Below, in pieces: positions 1,008 through 36,572 of a stretch of 37,164 nucleotides of DNA. Position numbers and translations under genes: made by a program. Where the stretch lies: the IMG/VR virus record IMGVR_UViG_2541047856_000006; one strand, 5' to 3'. How positions within the stretch are numbered: position 1 is the first letter of the stretch; the number at the start of each line of letters is the position of its first letter. This DNA is from a virus (Duplodnaviria > Heunggongvirae > Uroviricota > Caudoviricetes). Under the pieces are notes generated by a model. It was not told the origin of the DNA, did not search any database, and saw nothing but the letters and a program-made list of their open reading frames with translations.

Positions 1008-1985
1008 TTAAGCACCTCCTAGTGGATTAAACCTCACCGCATCCTGCAGGTAATCCGGCGCAAGATGGGCATAAATCATCGTTGTCTGAATCTTTGCGTG
1101 CCCCAGAATTTTCTGGAGCGTCAGAATATTGCCGCCGTTCATCATGAAATGACTGGCGAAGGTGTGGCGCAGCGCATGAACAGCCTGGCCGTCAGGAACA
1201 TCAGGTGCGACCGTTTTGATGACATCGCGAACCAATGAATAATCCAGCCTCGGAAACACCAGTTTCCCGCCCCGTTTTTTGATCTTTTCAAACAGGCTTT
1301 CAGAAATAGGAACGGTACGGTTTTTGCTGTTCTTCGTTTTTGAAAAAGTGATTCGACAATGAAGAACACGGCGCTGCTCCAGTGCCGCTACCTCGCCCCA
1401 TCGCGCCCCGGTCGACAGAAGGATTTCGACAGCCAGCCGCTCATCGGGATTTTCAGCCAGCGCATCCAGCAACTGAACACATTCAGACTTACTCAGGTAT
1501 CCCATTTCGCGCTCGTTAACCTTCATTCCTTTAAGGCCTTGAACGGGGTTATCGTTAAGAAAATGGCCGGATGAGATGAGTGCGGTAAACATCGCGCTTA
1601 ACGCCCCAATCTCTCGATTTATGGTGCTGGGCTGTATCCCCTGCTCTATCCTGGACACACGTAGCTCGGTGAGCATTGTTGTATTAAGTTTATGTACGCA
1701 CGGGTCATCCATTGCCTCACTCAAGCGCAGCAATTTAAGGCGCGTGTTATGCCCTGACTTCATTAGCTGGCCGTGGTATTTCCACCACAAGTCAATAAGC
1801 ACTGACAGAGGACGGCGATCAATAGAGTTTCCTTTCCACTCATTGTTATGCTGTTGCGCCAGCACCCACCGCTCATATAAAACTGCATCCGATTTCGTTT
1901 TAAATTTTTTGCGAATGCGTTTGCCTTTACGCCCCTCAGGGCGCATGTCAAGAAGATACCCTCCCGGAATTGATTTTATGCTCAT
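1008..1985 (-). CDS. int: P2-type tyrosine integrase
   Basis: C-terminal catalytic region HALRHTFASHFMMNGG...LGHAKIQTTMIYAHL. The N-terminus MSIKSIPGGYLLDMRPEGRKGKRIRKKF aligns with the remembered P2 Int start, so the start is placed at the ATG at 1985 rather than the upstream ORF extension to 2135. Confidence 0.93.
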   Translation of the reverse strand: MSIKSIPGGYLLDMRPEGRKGKRIRKKFKTKSDAVLYERWVLAQQHNNEWKGNSIDRRPLSVLIDLWWKYHGQLMKSGHNTRLKLLRLSEAMDDPCVHKLNTTMLTELRVSRIEQGIQPSTINREIGALSAMFTALISSGHFLNDNPVQGLKGMKVNEREMGYLSKSECVQLLDALAENPDERLAVEILLSTGARWGEVAALEQRRVLHCRITFSKTKNSKNRTVPISESLFEKIKKRGGKLVFPRLDYSLVRDVIKTVAPDVPDGQAVHALRHTFASHFMMNGGNILTLQKILGHAKIQTTMIYAHLAPDYLQDAVRFNPLGGA

Positions 1986-2034
1986 TCGTGAAACCCCAGC
2001 GTTACAAGACCACCATGCCCCCAGCGTTCCATGA

Positions 2035-2343
2035 TTAGCCGGGCTGTGTACCAGTCTTGCGGGATTTTTGAGAAGACGATGTGTTTTCTGGCCCATCAGG
2101 GGAGAGAGAGGGACTGATCTGCCCAGCAGCCTCATTCGTTTTTCCTGTCATAAGCCAATTCATGTACTTAAAAAAGCGAGGGTGATTAACAATCTTGATA
2201 AGCACTTCGCCCCCTATGTTTTCAATCCGCCCCGTTTCATAACGACGCAAAGTGCCGATAGGCACATCAATCAGGCCGCAAAATTCTTCGCGCGTTAAAT
2301 CCTCTGATTCACGAATCACTCTAATTTTTTCACCGATAAGCAT
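2035..2343 (-). CDS. C: Immunity repressor C (P2 C-like, helix-turn-helix)
   Basis: ~100 aa, directly upstream of int on the same strand and divergent from the early operon; the N-terminal helix-turn-helix-like segment and the tail ...SGQISPSL... resemble P2 C as remembered. Confidence 0.75.
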   Translation of the reverse strand: MLIGEKIRVIRESEDLTREEFCGLIDVPIGTLRRYETGRIENIGGEVLIKIVNHPRFFKYMNWLMTGKTNEAAGQISPSLSPDGPENTSSSQKSRKTGTQPG

Positions 2344-7625: not shown

Positions 7626-8585
7626 ATGAAAATTTGTATCGATGACGGCTCCACCAACATCAAGCTGGCATGGACTGAGAACGGCGAACGCCGCAACGCC
7701 ATCAGCCCGAACAGCTTCAAGTCGGAATGGTCTGCGCCGTTCGGTGGCACGCAGCCCGCGAACTACATGCTTGATGGCGTGCGCTATGGTTTTGATCCGG
7801 TCAGCGATCGCTTTGTCCAGACGACCGACACGCAATACCAGTACAGCGATGTGAATGTCATTGCCATTCATCACGCGCTGGTCAAATCAGGCATCACACC
7901 ACAGGAAGTGGATGTGGTTGTCACCCTGCCACTGAGCGAGTATTTCGACACAAACGCACAGCCGGACATGGCCAACATCAACCGCAAAAAAGCAAACGTC
8001 ATGCGCCCGGTGGCGTACCAGAACGGAAAAGCATTCACTATCCGTAACGTACGGGTTATGCCTGAATCCATTCCGGCTGGTTTTAAAGCACTGGCTGACA
8101 TGAGTCCGTTTGAATCCCTGCTGATTGTGGATTTAGGCGGAACCACGCTGGATGTGGCAAAGGTTCAGGGGCAACTGGCAGGTATCAGCCAGGTGTTTTG
8201 CGATCCACACGTAGGCGTTTCTCTGATGGCCAATGCCGTACTGTCGGTGATGGCCACTAACGGTATGCGCACCAGTCACCACATCGCCAATACCATTATC
8301 GAACATCGCCATGATGAAGCCTGGCTGCGCCAGCACATCCACAATGACGCGCATTACGCCAGCCTGATGGCGGTTATTCGTGAAAAGGAAGAAACACTGA
8401 AACAACGCGTGATCCGCGCGCTGGCGGGTTTTTCGGGTTACGGGCGGGTGATGGTTGTCGGTGGCGGGGCGGAGATTGTGGCACCCGCTATCCGCGAAGC
8501 CTGCGGAGTTAATGCGACTTTCATCGCGGACGGGGTGCCACAGTTTGCTCTGGTTAATGGGCTGTACGCAATGGACAAGGAGTAA
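7626..8585 (+). CDS. parM: Actin-like segregation ATPase ParM/StbA
   Basis: N-terminus MKICIDDGSTNIKLAW...ISPNSFKSEW...YSDVNVIAIHHALVKSGI closely matches the remembered plasmid R1 ParM; DLGGTT and VVGGGA phosphate-binding motifs present. Confidence 0.88.
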   Translation: MKICIDDGSTNIKLAWTENGERRNAISPNSFKSEWSAPFGGTQPANYMLDGVRYGFDPVSDRFVQTTDTQYQYSDVNVIAIHHALVKSGITPQEVDVVVTLPLSEYFDTNAQPDMANINRKKANVMRPVAYQNGKAFTIRNVRVMPESIPAGFKALADMSPFESLLIVDLGGTTLDVAKVQGQLAGISQVFCDPHVGVSLMANAVLSVMATNGMRTSHHIANTIIEHRHDEAWLRQHIHNDAHYASLMAVIREKEETLKQRVIRALAGFSGYGRVMVVGGGAEIVAPAIREACGVNATFIADGVPQFALVNGLYAMDKE

Positions 8586-21188: not shown

Positions 21189-23423
21189 ATGAGTACCACA
21201 ACACGAAAATTTAAAACCGTTATCACCGATACAGGTGCCAAAAAATTAGCTCAGGCAGCCGCTCCAGATGGTAAGCCTGTCCGCCTGACTCATATGGCCG
21301 TGGGCGACGGTGGCGGCACGTTGCCCACACCAGACAGTAAGCAGACCCGTCTGGTGCATGAGGTGTGGCGACACACTGTTAATCGCGTCATCCTGGACGC
21401 AACACATCAGAACCGCATTATTGCGGAGCTGGTTATTCCTCCTGAAACGGGCGGATTCTGGATCCGGGAAATTGGTGTATTTGATGAGCACGGCGATTTA
21501 ATCGCGGTGGGCAATACTGCCGAAAGTTACAAACCAACCGTTGCCGAAGGGTCCGGACGTGCACAAACATTTCGCACCATTCTGACCGTATCCAGCACGG
21601 CCACCGTGGCGCTTACCGTGGATAACACCATGGTGATGGCCACAGTGGATTACGTGGATGACAAACTGAAAGAGCATGAACAGTCACGACGTCACCCGGA
21701 CGCCTCGCTGACCGCAAAAGGCTTTGTTCAACTCAGTAGCGCCACTAACAGCGTGTCTGAAACGCAGGCTGCAACGCCGAAAGCGGTTAAGGCCGCGTAT
21801 GACCTTGCTAACGCAAAATATACCGCTCAGGACGCCACGACGGCACGAAAAGGCCTTGTCCAGCTCAGTAGCGCCACCAACAGCACGTCTGAAACGCAGG
21901 CTGCAACGCCGAAAGCAGTAAAGGCCGCGTATGACCTTGCTAACGCAAAATATACCGCTCAGGACGCCACGACGGCACAAAAAGGGATAGTCCAGCTCAG
22001 TAGTGCCACCAACAGCACGTCTGAAACACTGGCCGCGACATCGAAAGCGGTTAAGGCGGTAATGGATGAAACGAACAAGAAAGCGCCCTTAAACAGTCCT
22101 GCGTTGACCGGAACGCCAACAACGCCAACTGCGCGACAGGGAACGAATAATACCCAAATCGCAAGCACGGCTTTCGTTATGGCTGCGATTGCCGCCCTTG
22201 TAGATTCGTCACCTGACGCACTGAATACGCTGAACGAGTTAGCGGCGGCGCTGGGAAACGACCCGAATTTTGCGACCACCATGACTAACGCGCTTGCGGG
22301 TAAGCAACCGAAAGATGCCACCCTGACGGCGCTGGCCGGGCTTGCTACTGCGGCAGACAGGTTTCCGTATTTTACGGGGAATGATGTTGCCAGTCTGGCA
22401 ACCCTGACAGAAGTCGGGCGGGATATTCTTGCGAAATCGACCGTTGCCGCTGTTATCGAATACCTCGGTTTACAGGAAACGGTAAATCAGGCTTCTGGCG
22501 CATTACAGAAAAAACAGAACGGCGCAGATATTCCGGGAAAAGATACCTTCACCAAAAATATTGGGGCCTGTCGCGCATATAGCGCATGGCTGAATATTGG
22601 TGGCGATAGTCAGGTCTGGACAACTGCGCAATTTATTTCGTGGCTGGAGAGTCAGGGGGCATTTAACCATCCTTACTGGATGTGCAAAGGCTCATGGGCT
22701 TATGCAAATAATAAGGTCATTACAGATACAGGTTGCGGAAATATTTGTCTTGCAGGTGCTGTGGTGGAAGTTATTGGCACCCGCGGCGCAATGACCATAC
22801 GCGTTACCACGCCGAGCACGTCCAGCGGTGGCGGAATCACTAACGCTCAATTCACTTATATTAATCATGGTGATGCTTACGCTCCTGGCTGGCGACGAGA
22901 CTACAACACGAAAAACCAGCAGCCTGCATTTGCTTTAGGGCAAACAGGACGCAGGGTCGCAAATGATAAAGCTGTTGGCTGGAACTGGAATAGCGGCGTT
23001 TATGATGCAGATATCAGTGGCGCATCGACATTAATCCTCCACTTTAATATGAATGCGGGGAGTTGCCCTGCTGTACAGTTCCGCGTGAATTACAGAAATG
23101 GCGGTATCTTTTATCGTTCAGCGCGTGATGGTTATGGCTTTGAAGCTAACTGGTCAGAGTTTTACACCACAACACGCAAACCCTCTGCGGGAGATGTTGG
23201 TGCATATACGCAGGCAGAATGTAACTCAAGGTTTATTACAGGTATTCGCCTTGGCGGTCTGTCATCTGTTCAGACATGGAATGGTCCTGGCTGGTCTGAC
23301 AGGTCAGGTTATGTCGTTACTGGTTCAGTTAACGGAAACCGTGATGAATTAATTGATACAACTCAGGCAAGGCCAATTCAGTATTGCATTAATGGAACGT
23401 GGTATAACGCGGGGAGTATTTAA
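21189..23423 (+). CDS. H: Tail fibre protein (gpH-like), constant N-terminal part plus currently expressed variable C-terminal part
   Basis: 744 aa with three tandem ~43-aa repeats (VQLSSATNS.SET.AAT.KAVKA...); a recombination site lies inside the gene at 22453..22478. Confidence 0.9.
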   Translation: MSTTTRKFKTVITDTGAKKLAQAAAPDGKPVRLTHMAVGDGGGTLPTPDSKQTRLVHEVWRHTVNRVILDATHQNRIIAELVIPPETGGFWIREIGVFDEHGDLIAVGNTAESYKPTVAEGSGRAQTFRTILTVSSTATVALTVDNTMVMATVDYVDDKLKEHEQSRRHPDASLTAKGFVQLSSATNSVSETQAATPKAVKAAYDLANAKYTAQDATTARKGLVQLSSATNSTSETQAATPKAVKAAYDLANAKYTAQDATTAQKGIVQLSSATNSTSETLAATSKAVKAVMDETNKKAPLNSPALTGTPTTPTARQGTNNTQIASTAFVMAAIAALVDSSPDALNTLNELAAALGNDPNFATTMTNALAGKQPKDATLTALAGLATAADRFPYFTGNDVASLATLTEVGRDILAKSTVAAVIEYLGLQETVNQASGALQKKQNGADIPGKDTFTKNIGACRAYSAWLNIGGDSQVWTTAQFISWLESQGAFNHPYWMCKGSWAYANNKVITDTGCGNICLAGAVVEVIGTRGAMTIRVTTPSTSSGGGITNAQFTYINHGDAYAPGWRRDYNTKNQQPAFALGQTGRRVANDKAVGWNWNSGVYDADISGASTLILHFNMNAGSCPAVQFRVNYRNGGIFYRSARDGYGFEANWSEFYTTTRKPSAGDVGAYTQAECNSRFITGIRLGGLSSVQTWNGPGWSDRSGYVVTGSVNGNRDELIDTTQARPIQYCINGTWYNAGSI
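21717..22080 (+). repeat. Tandem ~129-bp repeats (about 2.8 copies) inside H
   Basis: Near-identical nucleotide blocks encode KG(F/L/I)VQLSSATNS(V/T)SETQAATPKAVKAAYDLANAKYTAQDATTA(R/Q); they also generate spurious antisense ORFs. Confidence 0.85.
22453..22478. other. Invertase crossover site (gix/hix-like), left
   Basis: TTATCGAATACCTCGGTTTACAGGAA inside H; inverted copy of the site at 25503..25528; matches the remembered Gin/Hin recombination-site consensus. Confidence 0.85.
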
Positions 23424-23425
23424 TT

Positions 23426-23959
23426 ATGATGCACTTAAAAAATATTACTGCTGGCAACCCTAAAACAAAAGAGCAATACCAGCTAACAAAGCAATTTAAC
23501 ATCAAATGGCTTTATTCAGATGATGGAAAAAACTGGTATGAGGAACAAAAGAATTTCCAGCCAGACACTTTGAAAATGGTCTATGACCATAACGGCGTTA
23601 TTATTTGTATTGAAAAGGATGTTTCAGCAATTAATCCGGAAGGCGCAAGCGTCGTTGAATTACCTGATATTACAGCAAATCGCCGGGCTGATATTTCGGG
23701 TAAATGGATGTTCAAAGATGGCGTAGTGATAAAGCGAACTTATACCGAGGAGGAACAGAGGCAGCAGGCAGAGAATGAAAAGCAAAGCCTGTTGCAACTT
23801 GTCAGGGATAAAACCCAGCTATGGGACTCACAGCTACGGCTGGGTATCATTTCCGACGAGAATAAACAAAAATTAACCGAGTGGATGCTCTATGCGCAGA
23901 AGGTCGAATCCACAGACACCTCCAGCCTGCCAGTAACGTTTCCAGAACAACCAGAATGA
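23426..23959 (+). CDS. G: Tail fibre assembly chaperone (gpG-like), expressed orientation
   Basis: 177 aa directly after H; paralogous to the minus-strand ORF at 23988..24515 (shared ...[12 protein letters not shown]...DITANRRAD...GKWMFKDG...). Confidence 0.8.
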   Translation: MMHLKNITAGNPKTKEQYQLTKQFNIKWLYSDDGKNWYEEQKNFQPDTLKMVYDHNGVIICIEKDVSAINPEGASVVELPDITANRRADISGKWMFKDGVVIKRTYTEEEQRQQAENEKQSLLQLVRDKTQLWDSQLRLGIISDENKQKLTEWMLYAQKVESTDTSSLPVTFPEQPE

Positions 23960-23987
23960 AACAAGGCCCGCTATCGGGCCTTAATTT

Positions 23988-24515
23988 TTATTCAGGCTTT
24001 TGTGGCCATTCAGGATTTGCCGTATCCACACGGCTGACCAGAACACTGTAGCGTTCCCATGACTCCAATCGTGTGCGTTCCTCTTCCGTCGCCATATTCA
24101 GCCTGACAGCGCGTTCCAGTGGCTGAATAACGTTTTCTGCTTCGGAAAGTAACGCAGCCTTTTGTGATTCGGCCTGTTGTTGTTGCTCGTCTGCCGTATA
24201 AATCCGTTTAACCACAGCTCCGTCCTTAAACATCCACTTACCGGAATCATCAGCACGACGATTAGCTGTAATATCAGGAACCTCAACGACGCTATAACCT
24301 TCAGGGTTAAGCGTGGAGGCATCTTTGGTGATGGCGACAATAATATTATTTGCATCGTAAACAATCTTTATTGTGTCTGGCTGAAAGTTTTTCACTTCCT
24401 CATACCAGTTTTTTCCGTCTTCGGACCATAACCAGATAACATCAAAATTCTTTGTTAGCTGATATTGTTCTTTTGTTTTTGGATTTCCAGACTTAATATT
24501 TTTTAAATGCTGCAT
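23988..24515 (-). CDS. Alternative tail fibre assembly chaperone (G')
   Basis: 175 aa paralogue of G in inverted orientation, within the invertible segment. Confidence 0.8.
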
Positions 24516-24518
24516 AAA

Positions 24519-25511
24519 TTACACCTGTGCGACGTTATACCATGTGCCATTGATGTATTTTTGTATTGGTCTGAATACTGCCGGATCATCGCCATCAACT
24601 TCACCGACAATGCCAAGCCCCGTAATTGCATGACCTGATTTCTCATACATCACGCCTTTTTGCATAGTCTGAACAACACGTGTGCCAAGTCGGACATCTC
24701 TCACATAACGTGAGTCAAAATTACCATAATTGCCGGGAATAACTTGCGCACCGCAAAGCCAGTTCCCGTTATTATCCATGTACGCCTGACCATCGGTGCC
24801 ATTGGCTGTCCTTGAGTTATTAATCATGTAGATGCCAAATTGCTTGTTCCCCAGTCCACCTATCATGAACTTTCGGTCGGCGTGATTCTGGCGAAGTAAC
24901 GCCTGAGCGCTATCAGTGTTAACTATATTTTTCCCAAAGATAGCGTTGTTATCGCGCATCTGAATCCACATACCATTACTGCTGTTAATAGCAAAACGGT
25001 CTGAAAGTGTCTCCCCTGAAACATTAAGGCCACGCCCCATCGAAACAGCGCCAGTAGCGTTATTAATCCATAATGGCCTTAATCCGTTATAAGTCCCCAT
25101 GTTGTCACCGGAGTTTGTCAACATGAAGTATGTATTTGAACCATCATTACGAATAAAGAATCCGTAATTACCATAAGCAATACGTAGGCCGTTTGCTGAT
25201 TTTGATATGACTTCGCCATTTACAATGGCATTGACAAGAACATACAAAGCATCCCATTTAAGATTCATCAGGTCTTTTGTTGTGGTGCTTTGTTTGCTTC
25301 TCCATTTGAAATATTCATTGCCGTTGTCGCCTGTTTCAAACCACATGTATGAATCAGTGTCACCATCGGCATCATTTTTAAATCCAATCTTCGCCCAGTC
25401 AGTATTTCGAATCCAGGCAAGGATTGAGTCATTTTCAAAAGTAAGCCCACCGGACAAGGTATCGCCATTTTTTTGCACGGCGTTACCAGCTCTGTTTACC
25501 GTTTCCTGCAA
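24519..25511 (-). CDS. Alternative tail-fibre C-terminal variable segment (promoterless H' cassette)
   Basis: Begins inside the right crossover site with MQETVN..., the same residues (LQETVN) found at the crossover point within H. It would fuse to the constant part of H after inversion. Confidence 0.8.
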   Translation of the reverse strand: MQETVNRAGNAVQKNGDTLSGGLTFENDSILAWIRNTDWAKIGFKNDADGDTDSYMWFETGDNGNEYFKWRSKQSTTTKDLMNLKWDALYVLVNAIVNGEVISKSANGLRIAYGNYGFFIRNDGSNTYFMLTNSGDNMGTYNGLRPLWINNATGAVSMGRGLNVSGETLSDRFAINSSNGMWIQMRDNNAIFGKNIVNTDSAQALLRQNHADRKFMIGGLGNKQFGIYMINNSRTANGTDGQAYMDNNGNWLCGAQVIPGNYGNFDSRYVRDVRLGTRVVQTMQKGVMYEKSGHAITGLGIVGEVDGDDPAVFRPIQKYINGTWYNVAQV

Positions 25512-25528
25512 ACCGAGGTTTTAGATAA
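25503..25528. other. Invertase crossover site (gix/hix-like), right
   Basis: TTCCTGCAAACCGAGGTTTTAGATAA, the inverted counterpart of 22453..22478, immediately upstream of the invertase gene. Confidence 0.85.
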
Positions 25529-25582
25529 TGGCCGTTTCTGACCTGCATGGCATGATTTACGCTTTTGGACGGGAGATTCAGC

Positions 25583-26170
25583 GTGCTGATTGGCTATGTA
25601 AGGGTATCAACAAATGACCAGAATACAGACCTGCAACGAAACGTTCTTGTTTGTGCAGGATGTGAACAAATATTTGAAGATAAATTAAGCGGGACAAAGA
25701 CAGACCGACCGGGATTAAAACGCGCTTTAAAGCGCCTTCAAAAAGGTGACACGCTGGTTGTCTGGAAACTGGATCGCCTCGGGCGAAGCATGAAACATCT
25801 GATTTCTCTCGTCGGGGAACTACGGGAGCGAGGGATTAATTTTCGCAGTCTGACCGACAGCATAGATACATCTTCTCCAATGGGGCGTTTTTTCTTCCAC
25901 GTGATGGGTGCCCTGGCTGAAATGGAACGTGAATTAATTGTTGAACGTACACTGGCCGGACTGGCAGCAGCGCGCGCACGGGGGCGCACAGGCGGACGTC
26001 GCCCGAAGCTGACAAAAGAACAGCATGAGCAAATAGCAAGGCTGATTAAAAACGGTCACGACAGAAAACAACTGGCAATAATTTACGGCATTGGTACATC
26101 GACGATTTATCGTTACCACCCCGCAGGAGAATCAAGCGGAACAATAGAGAAGAGTCAGAAAACAAAATAA
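25583..26170 (+). CDS. Serine-recombinase DNA invertase (Hin/Gin/Cin family)
   Basis: MLIGYVRVSTNDQNTDLQRN...LVVWKLDRLGRS...GRFFFHVMGALAEMERELI... with a C-terminal helix-turn-helix. Start taken at the GTG at 25583 (ORF frame begins at 25565). Confidence 0.93.
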   Translation: MLIGYVRVSTNDQNTDLQRNVLVCAGCEQIFEDKLSGTKTDRPGLKRALKRLQKGDTLVVWKLDRLGRSMKHLISLVGELRERGINFRSLTDSIDTSSPMGRFFFHVMGALAEMERELIVERTLAGLAAARARGRTGGRRPKLTKEQHEQIARLIKNGHDRKQLAIIYGIGTSTIYRYHPAGESSGTIEKSQKTK

Positions 26171-26198
26171 CCGCTAATCTGACCATTAGCGGTTTTTG
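26171..26198 (+). terminator. Rho-independent terminator after the invertase gene
   Basis: CCGCTAAT-ctgacc-ATTAGCGG followed by TTTTT. Confidence 0.7.
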
Positions 26199-26205
26199 TG
26201 TTAAA

Positions 26206-26700
26206 TCAGAACAGCCCTTTAACTGAACTGGCCGCGCTGTTAAGAGATGATGTCACCTTATCTTTGAAGCCGGACAGCATATCGCTGAACGATGAGGATT
26301 GCAGGCGCTCCCGCAAATCCTCATCACAGCGTTCAAGGGTCAGTGAAAATTCTATCTTTTTCGCCTTACCGTAGCGATCAAACTCGGAACGGGTCGTATT
26401 CGTTCCGGTCAGGACATACATGCCGTAAATCTGCCCGACGCCATCAATCAAAGGCCAGGGTCGTCCTGTATACGCCTGCGTGGTCAGCAGCGACAGCGAC
26501 ACTTCGCCACCTGTAATTTCAGGATAAAGCACACCAGAAAGAACGATGCGATCATCACCTGCACCGATATACTGCCAGCTTGCTGAACGGTTAACGCGTT
26601 CATTTTTCACATGCCGCCAGCTTTTGTTTTGCTGTAACTGCTGATGCGGCAGCGTGCGCAGCTCAAAAACAAACATGCCGTAGATCATCATCATGGCCAT
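26206..26700 (-). CDS. U: Tail protein gpU-like
   Basis: 164 aa directly downstream of the tape measure gene on the same strand; size matches P2 U. Confidence 0.75.
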   Translation of the reverse strand: MAMMMIYGMFVFELRTLPHQQLQQNKSWRHVKNERVNRSASWQYIGAGDDRIVLSGVLYPEITGGEVSLSLLTTQAYTGRPWPLIDGVGQIYGMYVLTGTNTTRSEFDRYGKAKKIEFSLTLERCDEDLRERLQSSSFSDMLSGFKDKVTSSLNSAASSVKGLF

Positions 26701-33134: not shown

Positions 33135-33258
33135 TTTCACCGACTGGCCAAGTGTAACCCGCCTTACACCAAGACGAATTATAATCGGCAACAATGTCAG
33201 TAGTTACTATAAATGTTTATAAACAAAAATTTATTTCTCCGAAGCTACAAGCACTACA

Positions 33259-36057
33259 CTAAATCTCAGCAATCTTTTTTTTACTGTGCTGTTCTATTAT
33301 CCACTCTGCTTCCGCTTGGTATTCATGAGCTAACTCTCGAAGAATTCGGGCAAATCGATGAAAGCCTAGAAGTTCCATTGCATCAGACTTAGTATGATAT
33401 TGTTGGGCCAACTCCAATTCCGGTTTACCTTCAGGGTCAACAATGTAGACACCACGCGAATTTATTACCGCATTCTTATAACCAGTACGCACTTTATCAA
33501 GTTCACGTCTATTCAAAAACTCGGCCAGTTCTGGAAGTATCCAATGCTCGTCATTTGCAGGGCTAAAAATTAATATGCTTCCAATTCTATGATAAGCAAA
33601 ATCTAAATGGCCTGACTTTTCGCATTCTGTTTGAACAAAATCAAACCAGTTATTAAACGCATTGGCATCAAACTTGCCTTCAGCATCAACACCCGGAATC
33701 TTTTTCCAATCATCAAGTAAATAGCGTGAGTTTTTGGCAATATTTATTTCACTTTCAGATAGTTCTTTACTTGCTTTTTGAAATTCTGATCGATACGCAT
33801 ATTGAATGACTTCACAAAAAAAACTGGGTTCACTTGCTAGTTTTTTCTCTAATACTTGAGGATGCAACGAATCATTGGCTCCCCTGTTAATTACAGGCAG
33901 GTATGCCCATTCAATCTTTACTAAGTCGTCATCTGAAACAGTGTTATCATTTTGAATATAATTCACAAGTTCATTAAATGAGTGAATATCAAACCGCTCA
34001 ATATTTTCTGTGGTTCTAATTGATTGCAATAGAGCAAGCACAACCTTGCTGCTATCAACTAAATTATCGATATGTAAAATTCGAGATAAACAATCTATTG
34101 CCATCAAGGGACGGTCTACTTTAATCAAGCAATCTACAGCAAAATAAATTTCTTCCGTTGAATCACAGCAGTATGCATTAACATGGGTATTTTTCCAATA
34201 CTCGAAAGGAAAATCATCAAATGAAGCGTTTAATGCATCCCACGTTTCTTTTTTAAACGGTAACAAAAGAAAAAAAGCAATCTTTTCTTGAGCACTCCAG
34301 TCATTAATAACTGCCAACACCCATGATTTTCCTTCTCTGTAGTTCTTAGCCTGTACATAACCAGAAGCAAGAGAATTTTCCTTTTTAATATCACTAACAA
34401 TAAGTTTTTTCAGTATATCTAAAGGGATTTCTAGATCTTCTGCGACCAGACTACTACCAACAAACTCAGGTCTTTCAATAGAAAGAGAGAATTCTAAGAC
34501 TCCGTCAATACCATTAACAGTATATATTTCGTATATTGATTGCCCTCGTTCTTTTGTCAACCTTTCTTCTTGGTCCCGCCAGTTTCCATTTTCATCAAAT
34601 AGGAAGTAACTATTTTGTGCAAAAAGTCGTTTGCTATAAAGCATAGGATTTTCGGGCTTCAAGACTGTAGAAACATCTTTGATTTTTTCATTCTGTTCTG
34701 GTTGTATTGCCCAATAAGCACCTGAGAATCTTTTGTTTTTGTTATAAACTTCTAAACATTTTTCCCACACCGCCAACTTCAATTCAGCACTATCTGTTTT
34801 TTTAGAAAAATCATACAATAATTTAATTGCATCATCGAATTTAAATGGCGCTAAACTACCAATATTTTCAACTAAATCAACAAGTCTTAATGATGATTTA
34901 CTTGCCAATTCAATTGTTAATTGAGTGTATCTTTCAATCTGAGTACGACACTCATCATCCGATGGCCTTTTATTAAAACCGTTAGGAATAAAGTTTCTAA
35001 AAGTTGGAATATGTGTGCCAGATGTTACTTGCGTGTTGTTGGGTAACAACTGAACTAAAACACGCCATGCTGTATCGGGCCACTCCCTTGCCAATGCTTT
35101 GAAAGCAGCAATACGTCTATCTATATCAGCTGTAGTATGAGGAAGCCATGGTAACAATATGTTGATTATCGAGTTAAGTGGCCTGTTAGCCCAATTGCCA
35201 CCAGGATCATGGCTATCCAGCTCCCCTAATATTACTAAAGAGCGAGATAAATAGTTAGGCGCCCAAGCTAATCCTTCAATAGCCCATAGCAGTCCTGTCA
35301 TATAATTCCGACCTGAAATTCCACCGATACCTTCCTGTGCAAAAAGTGAATCAAATGGCTTGTCTTGGTGAGATGCAGCATTTTCCACTTCGTCGATAAA
35401 ACAGTCAGGAGCACTTTCCGCAAGCATAACTTGAATATCTTGCGTACTAGCCCATAATTGCCAGCTAGAAGCCGAAAAAACCTCTTTAACCACACTTGAG
35501 GCGCAATATTGCCCTTTATATTTTGAGCAATTAGTAAGTAACTCTTGCTTTGTTGCAACTAATGCCAACCCTTCGGATAGTCCTTTCCTTATTAATCGGC
35601 TATGTGGTAAAACCTTCCCATAAATTACTGCTGCATAACGCTCTTCAGGTGCCAGTTCAAATTGTGGGTCGATTGTTTTAAAAACGGATACAACAGTCGT
35701 CCGAAACAAATCCAAATGATCATCGAATAATCTTGACGATACCGTTTGAAATGTTTGTATTCTATCTTTAAAACTCCAAGAACCTCTCTCATGAATCAAA
35801 GGACTATCTTGCATCCCTTCAATTATTCTTATTTTTCGAATCCAACTGTCATATGACTCGCCAATAAGGCTTGTAATTATATTAATATCACCATTATTTT
35901 TTTCATCCCAGCAACCGACTAAAACAGCAATCGCTAACTCAGTCGCATAATCAACATTATCAATATTGTATATAGTTAAGTTACCAGCAACATTATGGCC
36001 TGTTCCGGCATGATTTTGACTAACTGAACTGCAGCTATGAATGTTATCCATAGACAC
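33259..36057 (-). CDS. Large hypothetical protein (932 aa) in an AT-rich island; function unknown
   Basis: Long uninterrupted ORF, AT-rich and clearly different in composition from the flanking phage genes. No Walker A, helicase or recognisable nuclease motif was seen by eye. GTG/ATG start coupled to the stop of the upstream small gene. Confidence 0.65.
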   Translation of the reverse strand: MSMDNIHSCSSVSQNHAGTGHNVAGNLTIYNIDNVDYATELAIAVLVGCWDEKNNGDINIITSLIGESYDSWIRKIRIIEGMQDSPLIHERGSWSFKDRIQTFQTVSSRLFDDHLDLFRTTVVSVFKTIDPQFELAPEERYAAVIYGKVLPHSRLIRKGLSEGLALVATKQELLTNCSKYKGQYCASSVVKEVFSASSWQLWASTQDIQVMLAESAPDCFIDEVENAASHQDKPFDSLFAQEGIGGISGRNYMTGLLWAIEGLAWAPNYLSRSLVILGELDSHDPGGNWANRPLNSIINILLPWLPHTTADIDRRIAAFKALAREWPDTAWRVLVQLLPNNTQVTSGTHIPTFRNFIPNGFNKRPSDDECRTQIERYTQLTIELASKSSLRLVDLVENIGSLAPFKFDDAIKLLYDFSKKTDSAELKLAVWEKCLEVYNKNKRFSGAYWAIQPEQNEKIKDVSTVLKPENPMLYSKRLFAQNSYFLFDENGNWRDQEERLTKERGQSIYEIYTVNGIDGVLEFSLSIERPEFVGSSLVAEDLEIPLDILKKLIVSDIKKENSLASGYVQAKNYREGKSWVLAVINDWSAQEKIAFFLLLPFKKETWDALNASFDDFPFEYWKNTHVNAYCCDSTEEIYFAVDCLIKVDRPLMAIDCLSRILHIDNLVDSSKVVLALLQSIRTTENIERFDIHSFNELVNYIQNDNTVSDDDLVKIEWAYLPVINRGANDSLHPQVLEKKLASEPSFFCEVIQYAYRSEFQKASKELSESEINIAKNSRYLLDDWKKIPGVDAEGKFDANAFNNWFDFVQTECEKSGHLDFAYHRIGSILIFSPANDEHWILPELAEFLNRRELDKVRTGYKNAVINSRGVYIVDPEGKPELELAQQYHTKSDAMELLGFHRFARILRELAHEYQAEAEWIIEQHSKKKIAEI

Positions 36058-36377
36058 TACCTCGTAATTTTATTTCCACCAATATTATCACCAGTGCCAC
36101 TATGGTTTTGAATAATGACAGTTGTTGCATGAGGTTTTATAGACGAGAGTATTTTTTGAATTTCACTACTATCCAATAGTTTTCTTTCAATTGCTATTTC
36201 ACTCATTTCATCGTTCAAAGACAGTTTTTCAAGTTCTTTAGCTAAAGCAGGGGCCACAGCCTCATCAACAACCCAATTTTTTAACTTTGCTTTTATTGAA
36301 GTTGCAGTAATCGAAACATGATGTTTGAGCATGTCATAAACTATGCCAGAAAGTATCGTCGAAGATAAAAAATCCAT
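36057..36377 (-). CDS. Small hypothetical protein (106 aa), first gene of the island operon
   Basis: Same strand and composition as the 932-aa gene; its C-terminus (IIQNHSGTGDNIGGN) echoes the N-terminus of the large protein (SQNHAGTGHNVAGN). Confidence 0.6.
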   Translation of the reverse strand: MDFLSSTILSGIVYDMLKHHVSITATSIKAKLKNWVVDEAVAPALAKELEKLSLNDEMSEIAIERKLLDSSEIQKILSSIKPHATTVIIQNHSGTGDNIGGNKITR

Positions 36378-36572
36378 AACAATTTTCCCTTAACGTAAGA
36401 TATTTACTATCAAGATACATTTTAAATCGAAGAAAGAGCTTTTACCACGTATATTTATTGGCTAATAACATGATAATTCGACTATCTGCTATTCGCTTAA
36501 AACGAAGAGTTAGTTGGAATTATAGCCAGCACGACCTAGAATAACATCAGCACTGCGTTAAGGGAGGTCGCT
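36378..36572. promoter_or_regulatory. AT-rich divergent promoter region between the island operon and ogr
   Basis: 195-bp AT-rich spacer between divergently transcribed genes; no specific promoter elements assigned. Confidence 0.35.

Follow-up and report, generated by a model that had tools for sequence, protein, structure and literature searches.

The closest described systems are the G segment and Gin invertase of phages Mu and D108. Their 26-bp crossover sites are matched by those of the locus described here, which fit the gix consensus with one mismatch each, and so is the 34-bp inverted repeat. In both, the genes within the segment are ordered Sv'-U' and then U-Sv around a central bidirectional terminator, and the invertase gene is located immediately downstream with an enhancer, a predicted one in the present locus, in its 5' end. 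The invertase catalytic domain is near-identical to that of Gin. Cin of P1 and P7 (C segment), Min of p15B, Pin of e14 and Hin of Salmonella are recombinases of the same family, act on sites of the same kind and make use of a Fis-dependent enhancer. In P1 and P7, too, the switch is between Sv-U and Sv'-U', with 87-96% amino acid identity to the products found here. P1 differs in having cin on the other side of the segment, in its much longer inverted repeats (about 0.6 kb) and in a TT core. Min has six sites, while only two were found here. Hin sits inside its own segment and switches a promoter, not a coding end.

The stretch of DNA analyzed (37,164 nucleotides, hereafter the window) is carried by a P88-like Xuanwuvirus (Peduoviridae), i.e., a P2-related E. 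coli prophage or temperate phage. Between 77 and 84% of window positions 1-21000 was covered at 95-96% identity by the relatives P88, Chuche, PhiR44_2, 520873, and 503458, and genes of the P2 type for structure and replication were identified by Pfam (gpA, gpI, gpU, gpD, FI, and FII). The prophage is complete with all virion genes present. The Xuanwuvirus records P88, 503458, 520873, and phiSM as well as prophage relatives were found to have the same backbone (about 95-96% identical) and the same layout of fibre, segment and invertase, the genes being labelled tail fiber, tail fiber assembly and DNA invertase in GenBank. The deposited P88 sequence has the segment the other way round, with S/U expressed and a fibre of 764 aa. 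The relatives differ in the number of 44-aa repeats in the fibre gene H, and share with the window neither its left end (1-2767) nor its cargo region (33135-36511). A defence-type cargo gene of the GapS6a family (NCBIfam) was observed on the element, and a PADLOC scan of the cargo ORFs gave no significant match.

The original prediction placed two inverted 26-bp sites in this DNA, the left one inside H, and both were found at exactly the positions given for them (Table 1). When up to three mismatches to the gix consensus were allowed, these two sites were the only matches in the window, and none occurred in 100 shuffles. Each site has TC as core dinucleotide when read in its own orientation, flanked by 12-bp half-sites of the TTATCNAAAACC and TTCCTGTAAACC types. 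This is the arrangement of Din-family sites, i.e., two inverted 26-bp sites with identical 2-bp cores between imperfectly symmetric half-sites. A comparison of the left with the right site shows 3 mismatches in 26 positions, with the cores and the core-adjacent positions identical. The outer half-site of the left site has a T in place of the A found in Mu (AATACC). The annotated cixR of P1 has this T as well, and so do relatives whichever way their segment lies; in these relatives the left outer half-site as a whole is the same. The inverted repeat at the two sites spans 34 nt with 31 matching positions, and was stretched by the repeat search to 61 nt at 75%. Measured between its outer edges the element spans 3076 bp, of which about 3050 bp lie between the crossover points. 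A multi-site shufflon of the Min type was considered and rejected, as no extra or quasi sites were found beyond the two.

Table 1. Features of the invertible tail-fibre segment and its surroundings (window positions).
Feature	Position	Strand	Sequence, evidence or remark
Constant N-terminal part of tail-fibre gene H, P2-type	21189..22466	+	Outside invertible segment
Left crossover site (gixL-like), within H	22453..22478	+	TTATCGAATACC TC GGTTTACAGGAA
Expressed variable fibre C-terminus, Mu/D108 S' (Sv') type	22467..23423	+	Amino acid identity
Expressed tail-fibre assembly chaperone, U' type, 177 aa	23426..23959	+	Amino acid identity, Pfam
Bidirectional terminator-like hairpin between convergent chaperone genes	23962..23983	.	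Terminator scan, both strands
Silent chaperone, U type, 175 aa	23988..24515	-	Amino acid identity, Pfam
Silent variable fibre C-terminus, Mu/D108 S (Sv) type	24519..25514	-	Amino acid identity
Right crossover site (gixR-like)	25503..25528	-	TTATCTAAAACC TC GGTTTGCAGGAA, read on - strand
DNA invertase gene, 195 aa, GTG start as in gin	25583..26170	+	Pfam, PDB, alignment
Predicted Fis-dependent recombinational enhancer, in 5' end of invertase gene	25601..25672	.	Homology
Bidirectional terminator-like hairpin between invertase gene and convergent tail gene U	26169..26194	.	Terminator scan
Tail gene U (gpU)	26206-26700	-	Pfam

The left site falls within the H open reading frame (21189-23423, 744 aa). 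The part of H outside the segment contains an N-terminal Phage_tail_fib domain (tail-collar N-domain) and three Phage_fiber_2 fibre repeats according to Pfam, and it provides whichever C-terminus faces it with a promoter, a start codon and approximately 426 leading codons. Relatives were collinear with the window at 98% up to position 22491, regardless of the orientation of their segment. The C-terminus now joined to H has 96.6% amino acid identity to D108 S' and 87% to P1 Sv', and is followed by a chaperone with 100% identity to D108 U' and 97.7% to Mu U' (Pfam Caudo_TAP, 6e-37). On the opposite strand, beyond a hairpin at the homologous position of which D108 has annotated rho-independent terminators on both strands, the second chaperone has 98.9% identity to D108 U (Caudo_TAP, 2e-37), and the second fibre C-terminus 96.4% to D108 S residues 171-500. 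This second fibre reading frame (24519-25511) begins inside the right site with stop codons just upstream on the - strand. It is promoterless and has neither a start codon nor an N-terminal part of its own. Neither of the two silent genes contains frameshifts or stops, and both are 96-99% identical to the functional D108 genes.

The ORF map agrees with the proposal that about 3.1 kb holds the current fibre C-terminus and chaperone together with an alternative pair on the opposite strand. The junction residues LQETVN, predicted to be shared by the two fibre segments, were recovered as LGLQETVN read across the site in both. Inversion in silico at the core gave an in-frame fusion to H and an intact fibre of 757 aa, compared to 744 aa for the native form; 757 aa is also the length of the P88 fibre used in an earlier host-range study (PMC5285337). 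A constant N-terminus outside the segment and two opposed pairs of C-terminus and chaperone inside it, both in frame, is the arrangement of Mu G and P1 C. Since the promoter, start codon and about 426 codons of H are located outside the segment, each orientation provides a different in-frame C-terminus with the matching chaperone downstream. The state sequenced is the one in which Mu-type S'/U' (G(-)) is expressed and S/U is silent.

An invertase gene was predicted just outside the segment, and one was found 55 nt beyond the right site. The protein matched Resolvase (1.5e-49) and HTH_7 (1.1e-13) in Pfam, and the PDB structures of Gin 4m6f/3uj3 over residues 1-183 (E=1e-100), with residues 1-134 nearly identical to the crystallised Gin. 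The motif VRVS(9)TNDQ with the nucleophile and the motif DRLGR are both present, and in an alignment with Gin and Cin residues S9, R8, and D64-R65-L-G-R68 were invariant. The protein is therefore a small serine recombinase of the Din family, with a Ser-nucleophile catalytic domain and a C-terminal HTH. Identity to Mu gin is about 97% over nucleotides 1-360 of the gene and about 50% over the remainder. The C-terminal DNA-binding domain was found to be 100% identical to that of the P88 invertase. By these comparisons the invertase is mosaic, its catalytic domain being Gin-like and its DNA-binding HTH domain of the P88 lineage.

In Hin, residues Q151, R154, and L155 and the basic residues at 47, 48, and 51 are reported to contact Fis or the enhancer, and to be conserved only among invertases (PMC3798978). 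The corresponding Q150, R153, and L154 are invariant here, and the helix-B basic residues K46, R47, and K50 are present. The predicted enhancer has the same position as the annotated enhancer of P1 cin (nt 19-90 of the gene), and is identical to gin of Mu and D108 at 71 of 72 nt and to P1 cin at 54 of 72. A search for two Fis sites with the degenerate motif G-N13-C returned too many matches to be informative, and positional homology was used instead; by that homology, Fis would be expected to bind here. A scan for sigma-70 promoters between the right site and the GTG start of the invertase gene revealed no consensus promoter at the criteria of the scan. We therefore assume, by analogy with the weakly expressed gin, that the invertase is expressed.

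The likeness to Mu and D108 goes beyond architecture. Over the segment the DNA is 97.3% identical to the G segment of D108 and 93.7% identical to that of Mu, and the four gene products (S', U', U, and S) have 96-100% amino acid identity to their D108/Mu counterparts. Homology to D108/Mu G starts exactly at the left site, and the contiguous megablast match stops at the right site. All elements of the proposed Mu G-segment/P1 C-segment architecture that can be read from sequence were present, and on these identities the segment is a close homologue of D108/Mu G. The surroundings are different. The carrier belongs to the P2-related Xuanwuvirus group, whereas Mu-like phages are transposable. The constant part of the fibre is of the P2 H type with a tail-collar N-domain and 44-aa repeats (about 426 aa), whereas the N-terminus of Mu S is about 170 aa. 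The DNA-binding domain of the invertase shares only about 54% identity with its Gin counterpart. No com/mom module is present downstream; instead, the invertase gene faces the convergent tail genes U and T.

Both orientations were found among relatives. The left junction was present in the native form in 126 E. coli genomes and in the in silico inverted form in 355, and the right junction in 121 and 132, respectively; some of the genomes counted may represent Mu-like prophages, or P2-like ones whose fibre is fixed. Compared to the window, the EC14 prophage and phage P88 both had collinear flanks and an inverted middle, with breakpoints at the sites. In the E110019 assembly, one chromosomal locus was present twice, with 0-2 mismatches in the flanks and only a 3097-bp segment inverted. 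This prophage is 96-98% identical to that of the window and has the same outer half-sites. The 'extrachromosomal' record of E110019 was considered as a second prophage copy or replicon. This was rejected, since record and chromosome remain collinear across the host genes flk and yfcJ, at 0-2 mismatches. Both orientations were thus seen for the lineage (P88, EC14, and E110019) rather than for this exact molecule, which is represented by a single consensus, and these comparisons support inversion in vivo in near-identical prophages.

Based on this analysis we consider it very likely that the locus is a Gin-type (Din-family) inversion switch which controls the receptor-binding end of the tail fibre in a P88-like E. 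coli phage or prophage, and the switch is real and probably functional. The invertase would bind the two inverted sites as dimers, and host Fis at the predicted enhancer in the 5' end of the invertase gene would aid formation of the synaptic complex on supercoiled DNA. Both sites would be cleaved at the central TC, one pair of half-sites turned 180 degrees, and the ends religated, so that about 3.05 kb is flipped. The dependence on Fis and the mode of strand exchange are expected from the literature on Mu, P1, and Hin. After inversion the S/U (G(+)) type with its 757-aa fibre would be expressed in place of the present S'/U' (G(-)) type of 744 aa. Since each orientation specifies a different fibre, a lysogen population would release two kinds of virions that differ in receptor specificity. 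Two host ranges would be in agreement with the 96-100% identity to the D108/Mu products and with the host ranges of Mu G(+) and G(-) (summarised in PMC4406740).

The absence of a consensus promoter before the invertase gene and the three differences between the left and the right site could also be explained by a relic, in which the architecture of a Mu-like donor is retained while the switch is inoperative, because the invertase is unexpressed or the sites are not recombined, and the fibre is fixed as S'/U'. For SfMu, a single-base change adjacent to the core was suggested to possibly abolish inversion (PMC4406740). Here, however, the cores and the adjoining positions are the same in both sites, the invertase reading frame is intact with all catalytic and Fis-contact residues, and the silent copies are without frameshifts or stops at 96-99% identity to functional D108 genes. 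Together with the E110019 prophage, which shares the outer half-sites at 96-98% identity and occurs in both orientations within one assembly, this makes an inoperative switch very improbable. We consider it very improbable, too, that beyond a change of the phage's own host range inversion also, or mainly, serves the lysogen through a fibre-derived protein which in one orientation blocks adsorption of other phages. Such a role was reported for PinQ and the e14 P segment (StfE2), a related Pin-type inversion in a cryptic prophage (PMC12529663), and the GapS6a family cargo gene would fit with a function in defence. The prophage described here is, however, complete with all virion genes, and H is a late structural gene which gives a full-length fibre fusion in both orientations.

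The orientations seen in relatives could in principle result from RecA-dependent recombination rather than from the invertase, either between the 34-bp repeats or between the 70-78% similar, convergent chaperone and fibre-end sequences that adjoin them on the inner side. The convergent chaperone genes contain inverted repeats of 163 nt (76%) and 158 nt (72%), the ends of the fibre genes a 40-nt repeat (78%), and breakpoints can be placed only within an overlap of about 38 bp. However, the breakpoints in EC14, P88, and E110019 coincide with the 26-bp sites rather than with the chaperone genes, and a dedicated, conserved recombinase and a predicted enhancer adjoin the segment. A repeat of 34 bp with mismatches is also a poor substrate for RecA, and the probability of this route is close to negligible.

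A rather unlikely, more far-reaching reading treats the G segment as a mobile cassette that was recently exchanged between Mu/D108-like and P88-like phages. The unit would comprise the left site, the G segment, the right site and, with the predicted enhancer, approximately 370 nt from the start of the invertase gene. One end would have been formed by invertase-mediated intermolecular recombination at the left site, with homology starting to the base, and the other at the boundary between the catalytic and the DNA-binding domain, resulting in a chimeric invertase. If so, the switch would in addition serve to transfer host-range modules among unrelated phage families that reside in the same cell.

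The system as such is already known, being the classic textbook flip-flop of phage host range, here in a common E. coli prophage family. Any single assembly of such a prophage has only one of the two fibre states annotated as the fibre, the other being labelled by PGAP as partial, hypothetical or a pseudogene. Leftover 'extrachromosomal' contigs, such as that of E110019, can be inversion artefacts. The host range of P88 was reportedly altered by single residue changes in this fibre tip in a study where inversion goes unmentioned (PMC5285337), and host-range experiments with P88-like phages should allow for the switch.

The original prediction had placed inverted 26-bp crossover sequences at 22453-22478 and 25503-25528 of the window, and both were found there. 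A search of the window with the Mu gix consensus, allowing up to three mismatches, matched these two sites only, and gave no gix-like match in 100 dinucleotide-preserving shuffles. The core dinucleotide TC is common to both sites, each read in its own orientation; serine invertases exchange strands by a 180-degree rotation that needs identical cores for religation. The inverted repeat at the sites spans 34 nt with 31 matching positions, and is equal in length to that of Mu (PMC4406740). ORFs and domains also bore out the proposed layout, i.e., a fibre end with its chaperone and an alternative pair on the opposite strand, and the invertase gene was located outside the segment, as had been claimed; it lies beyond the right site.

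Features of the invertible segment and its surroundings in the window
Feature	Coordinates	Strand	Remarks
Tyrosine integrase	1008-2135	-	Within the left ~2.8 kb
ParM-type plasmid segregation gene	7626-8585		Also in the P88 annotation
H, tail fibre, 744 aa	21189-23423	+	Left site within ORF; expressed C-terminus closest to D108 S' (96.6% aa identity)
Three tandem 132-nt copies	21698-22093		Constant part of H; 100%, 89%, and 66% identity
Left crossover site	22453-22478	+	TTATCGAATACC TC GGTTTACAGGAA; inside H
Caudo_TAP chaperone, 177 aa	23426-23959	+	After H; expressed; closest to D108 U' (100% aa identity)
Terminator-like hairpin, bidirectional	23962-23983	both	Between the convergent chaperone genes
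Second chaperone, 175 aa	23988-24515	-	Opposite to H; silent; closest to D108 U (98.9% aa identity)
Alternative fibre C-terminus, 330 aa	24519-25511	-	Silent; D108 S residues 171-500 (96.4% aa identity)
Right crossover site	25503-25528	-	TTATCTAAAACC TC GGTTTGCAGGAA on - strand
DNA invertase gene, 195 aa	25583-26170	+	Resolvase and HTH_7 domains
Predicted enhancer	25601-25672		Inside invertase gene; homologous to annotated P1 cin enhancer
Cargo gene 2, 932 aa	33259-36057	-	Overlapping ORF
Cargo gene 1, 106 aa	36057-36377	-	GapS6a-family anti-phage protein

Since stop codons lie upstream of it and its ORF starts within the right site, the minus-strand fibre C-terminus is not expressible in situ. 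Inversion of 22465-25516 in silico kept the reading frame and extended H to 757 aa, with ...EYLGLQETVNRAGNAV... at the junction where the native fibre reads ...EYLGLQETVNQASGAL.... The hairpin between the chaperone genes lies where terminators are annotated in D108. The tandem copies in H encode 44-aa Phage_fiber_2 repeats, and the P1 record likewise has a 132-bp "repeated element a1" annotated in its own fibre gene. The length of H was found to differ among relatives, from 661 aa (phage 503458) to 744 aa (window) and 764 aa (P88 and EC14). PGAP labels for the silent fibre C-terminus vary between "hypothetical protein", "tail fiber protein", and pseudogene ("incomplete; missing N-terminus") in three RefSeq relatives (L003, L004, and NZ_CP035755.1), and this unevenness is an annotation artefact that the switch produces systematically.

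Judged by alignment, the segment is a Mu G segment and does not merely resemble one. The interval 22453-25528 aligned to D108 as one block with 97.3% identity, to Mu with 93.7% identity and to D6, P1, P7, and SfMu with 90-94% identity. The D108 and Mu alignments ran exactly from the outer edge of one site to that of the other. Because the expressed pair matches D108 S'/U', the window is in a Mu G(-)-type state. Mu G(+) particles, carrying S and U, infect E. coli K-12 (literature summarised in PMC4406740), and by analogy a Mu-like difference in host range between the orientations is predicted for this phage. Single-residue changes in the P88 fibre tip can alter host range; the words "invertase", "inversion", and "invert" are absent from the study reporting this (PMC5285337).

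The most probable start codon of the invertase is the GTG at 25583, which aligns with the gin start and has GGGAG just upstream, and not the TTG at 25565 of the listed ORF. Its product matched crystallised Gin chains with E=1e-100, and the alignment showed conservation of the DRLGR motif and of S9, the nucleophilic serine. By its identity profile the gene is a mosaic with a break near 25950; nucleotides 1-360 are ~97% identical to Mu gin and those beyond ~50%, while the C-terminal DNA-binding domain of the protein is ~54% identical to Gin and 100% identical to the P88 invertase. Using the criterion for Fis-contact and enhancer-DNA-contact residues of Hin (PMC3798978), the Fis-contact positions Q151, R154, and L155 were found to be invariant (Q150, R153, and L154 in the window) despite the divergence of the domain, and the basic residues K46, R47, and K50 of helix B were present. 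The enhancer annotated in the P1 record at cin nt 19-90 has a predicted counterpart in the window, in which 71 of 72 nt are shared with gin of Mu and D108. A promoter scan found no sigma-70 consensus promoter for the invertase gene.

Sequence evidence that this lineage inverts is of four kinds. In the P88 record (NC_026014.1) the segment is opposite to that of the window between the same flanks. In E. coli EC14 the prophage aligns collinearly with the window, at 98.1% as far as 22491 and at 96.1% from 25510, and the interval between aligns on the opposite strand. Among 5,426 complete E. coli genomes, with presence taken as at least 80% coverage, the left junction was found in native form in 126 and in the in-silico inverted form in 355, and the right junction, of which the invertase gene is a part, in 121 and 132, all counts being upper bounds that may include Mu-like or fixed-fibre P2-like prophages. 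A 25.4-kb "extrachromosomal" record of E. coli E110019 (NZ_CP035755.1) is collinear with the chromosomal prophage (NZ_CP035751.1, 3140000-3172000), which is 96-98% identical to the window and has the same outer half-sites. The flanks of the two records differ by 0 and 2 mismatches and otherwise by indels only, while a 3,097-bp block is inverted between them, its ends overlapping the flanks by ~38 bp at the two sites. The simplest explanation of the pair is a mixed culture with both orientations, from which a single locus was assembled in two ways. We rejected the "extrachromosomal" record as a replicon, as it duplicates the chromosomal prophage locus together with the adjacent flk and yfcJ of the host.

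The switch could be a frozen relic that no longer operates in this exact molecule. This is unlikely, as every component is intact, with no damage to the silent genes, and inversion occurs in a near-identical prophage. Inversion by RecA instead of the invertase does not fit, since the breakpoint positions disagree with it. Inversion may also serve to defend the lysogen, a role described for PinQ and e14 (PMC12529663), but nothing in the sequence suggests it here. For a host-range switch driven by the invertase, all sequence-testable defining features of the Mu G/P1 C architecture named in the original prediction were present, as were those of Din-family inversion systems.

Gene content and similarity identify the window as a temperate phage or prophage of the P88-like type (Xuanwuvirus, Peduoviridae). 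Chuche, PhiR44_2, P88, 520873, and 503458 covered 77-84% of positions 1-21000 with 95-96% identity, and the P2-type genes I, U, A, D, FI, and FII were found. U, T, FII, and FI, all tail genes on the minus strand, are convergent with the invertase gene. Positions 1-2767 are absent from P88-like phage records, and two small ORFs there matched no family. A two-gene cargo (33259-36377, minus strand) occupies the variable spot that separates gpD from the right end. Its first gene scored 135.6 bits against NCBIfam NF047935 (cut-off 90) and also matched Pfam HetE-N, while the second had no match in Pfam, NCBIfam, or PADLOC. The E110019 relative lacks the interval 33135-36511 and has a DUF2971 gene in that spot.

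Only three things set the switch apart from that of Mu, namely its host phage, the P2-type constant part of the fibre and an invertase whose DNA-binding domain is lineage-specific. Several GenBank phage records, with the invertase annotated, and more than 100 E. coli genomes already show this arrangement; the system is therefore already known, and the finding of an inversion switch is correct, well supported and ordinary. Homology to Mu/D108 starts exactly at the left site and stops within the invertase gene, where its two domains meet. This pattern would fit a switch that has moved as a cassette from one phage family to an unrelated one. Such transfer is an old idea in the tail-fibre literature, and these limits of homology are the sole evolutionary point of mild interest.
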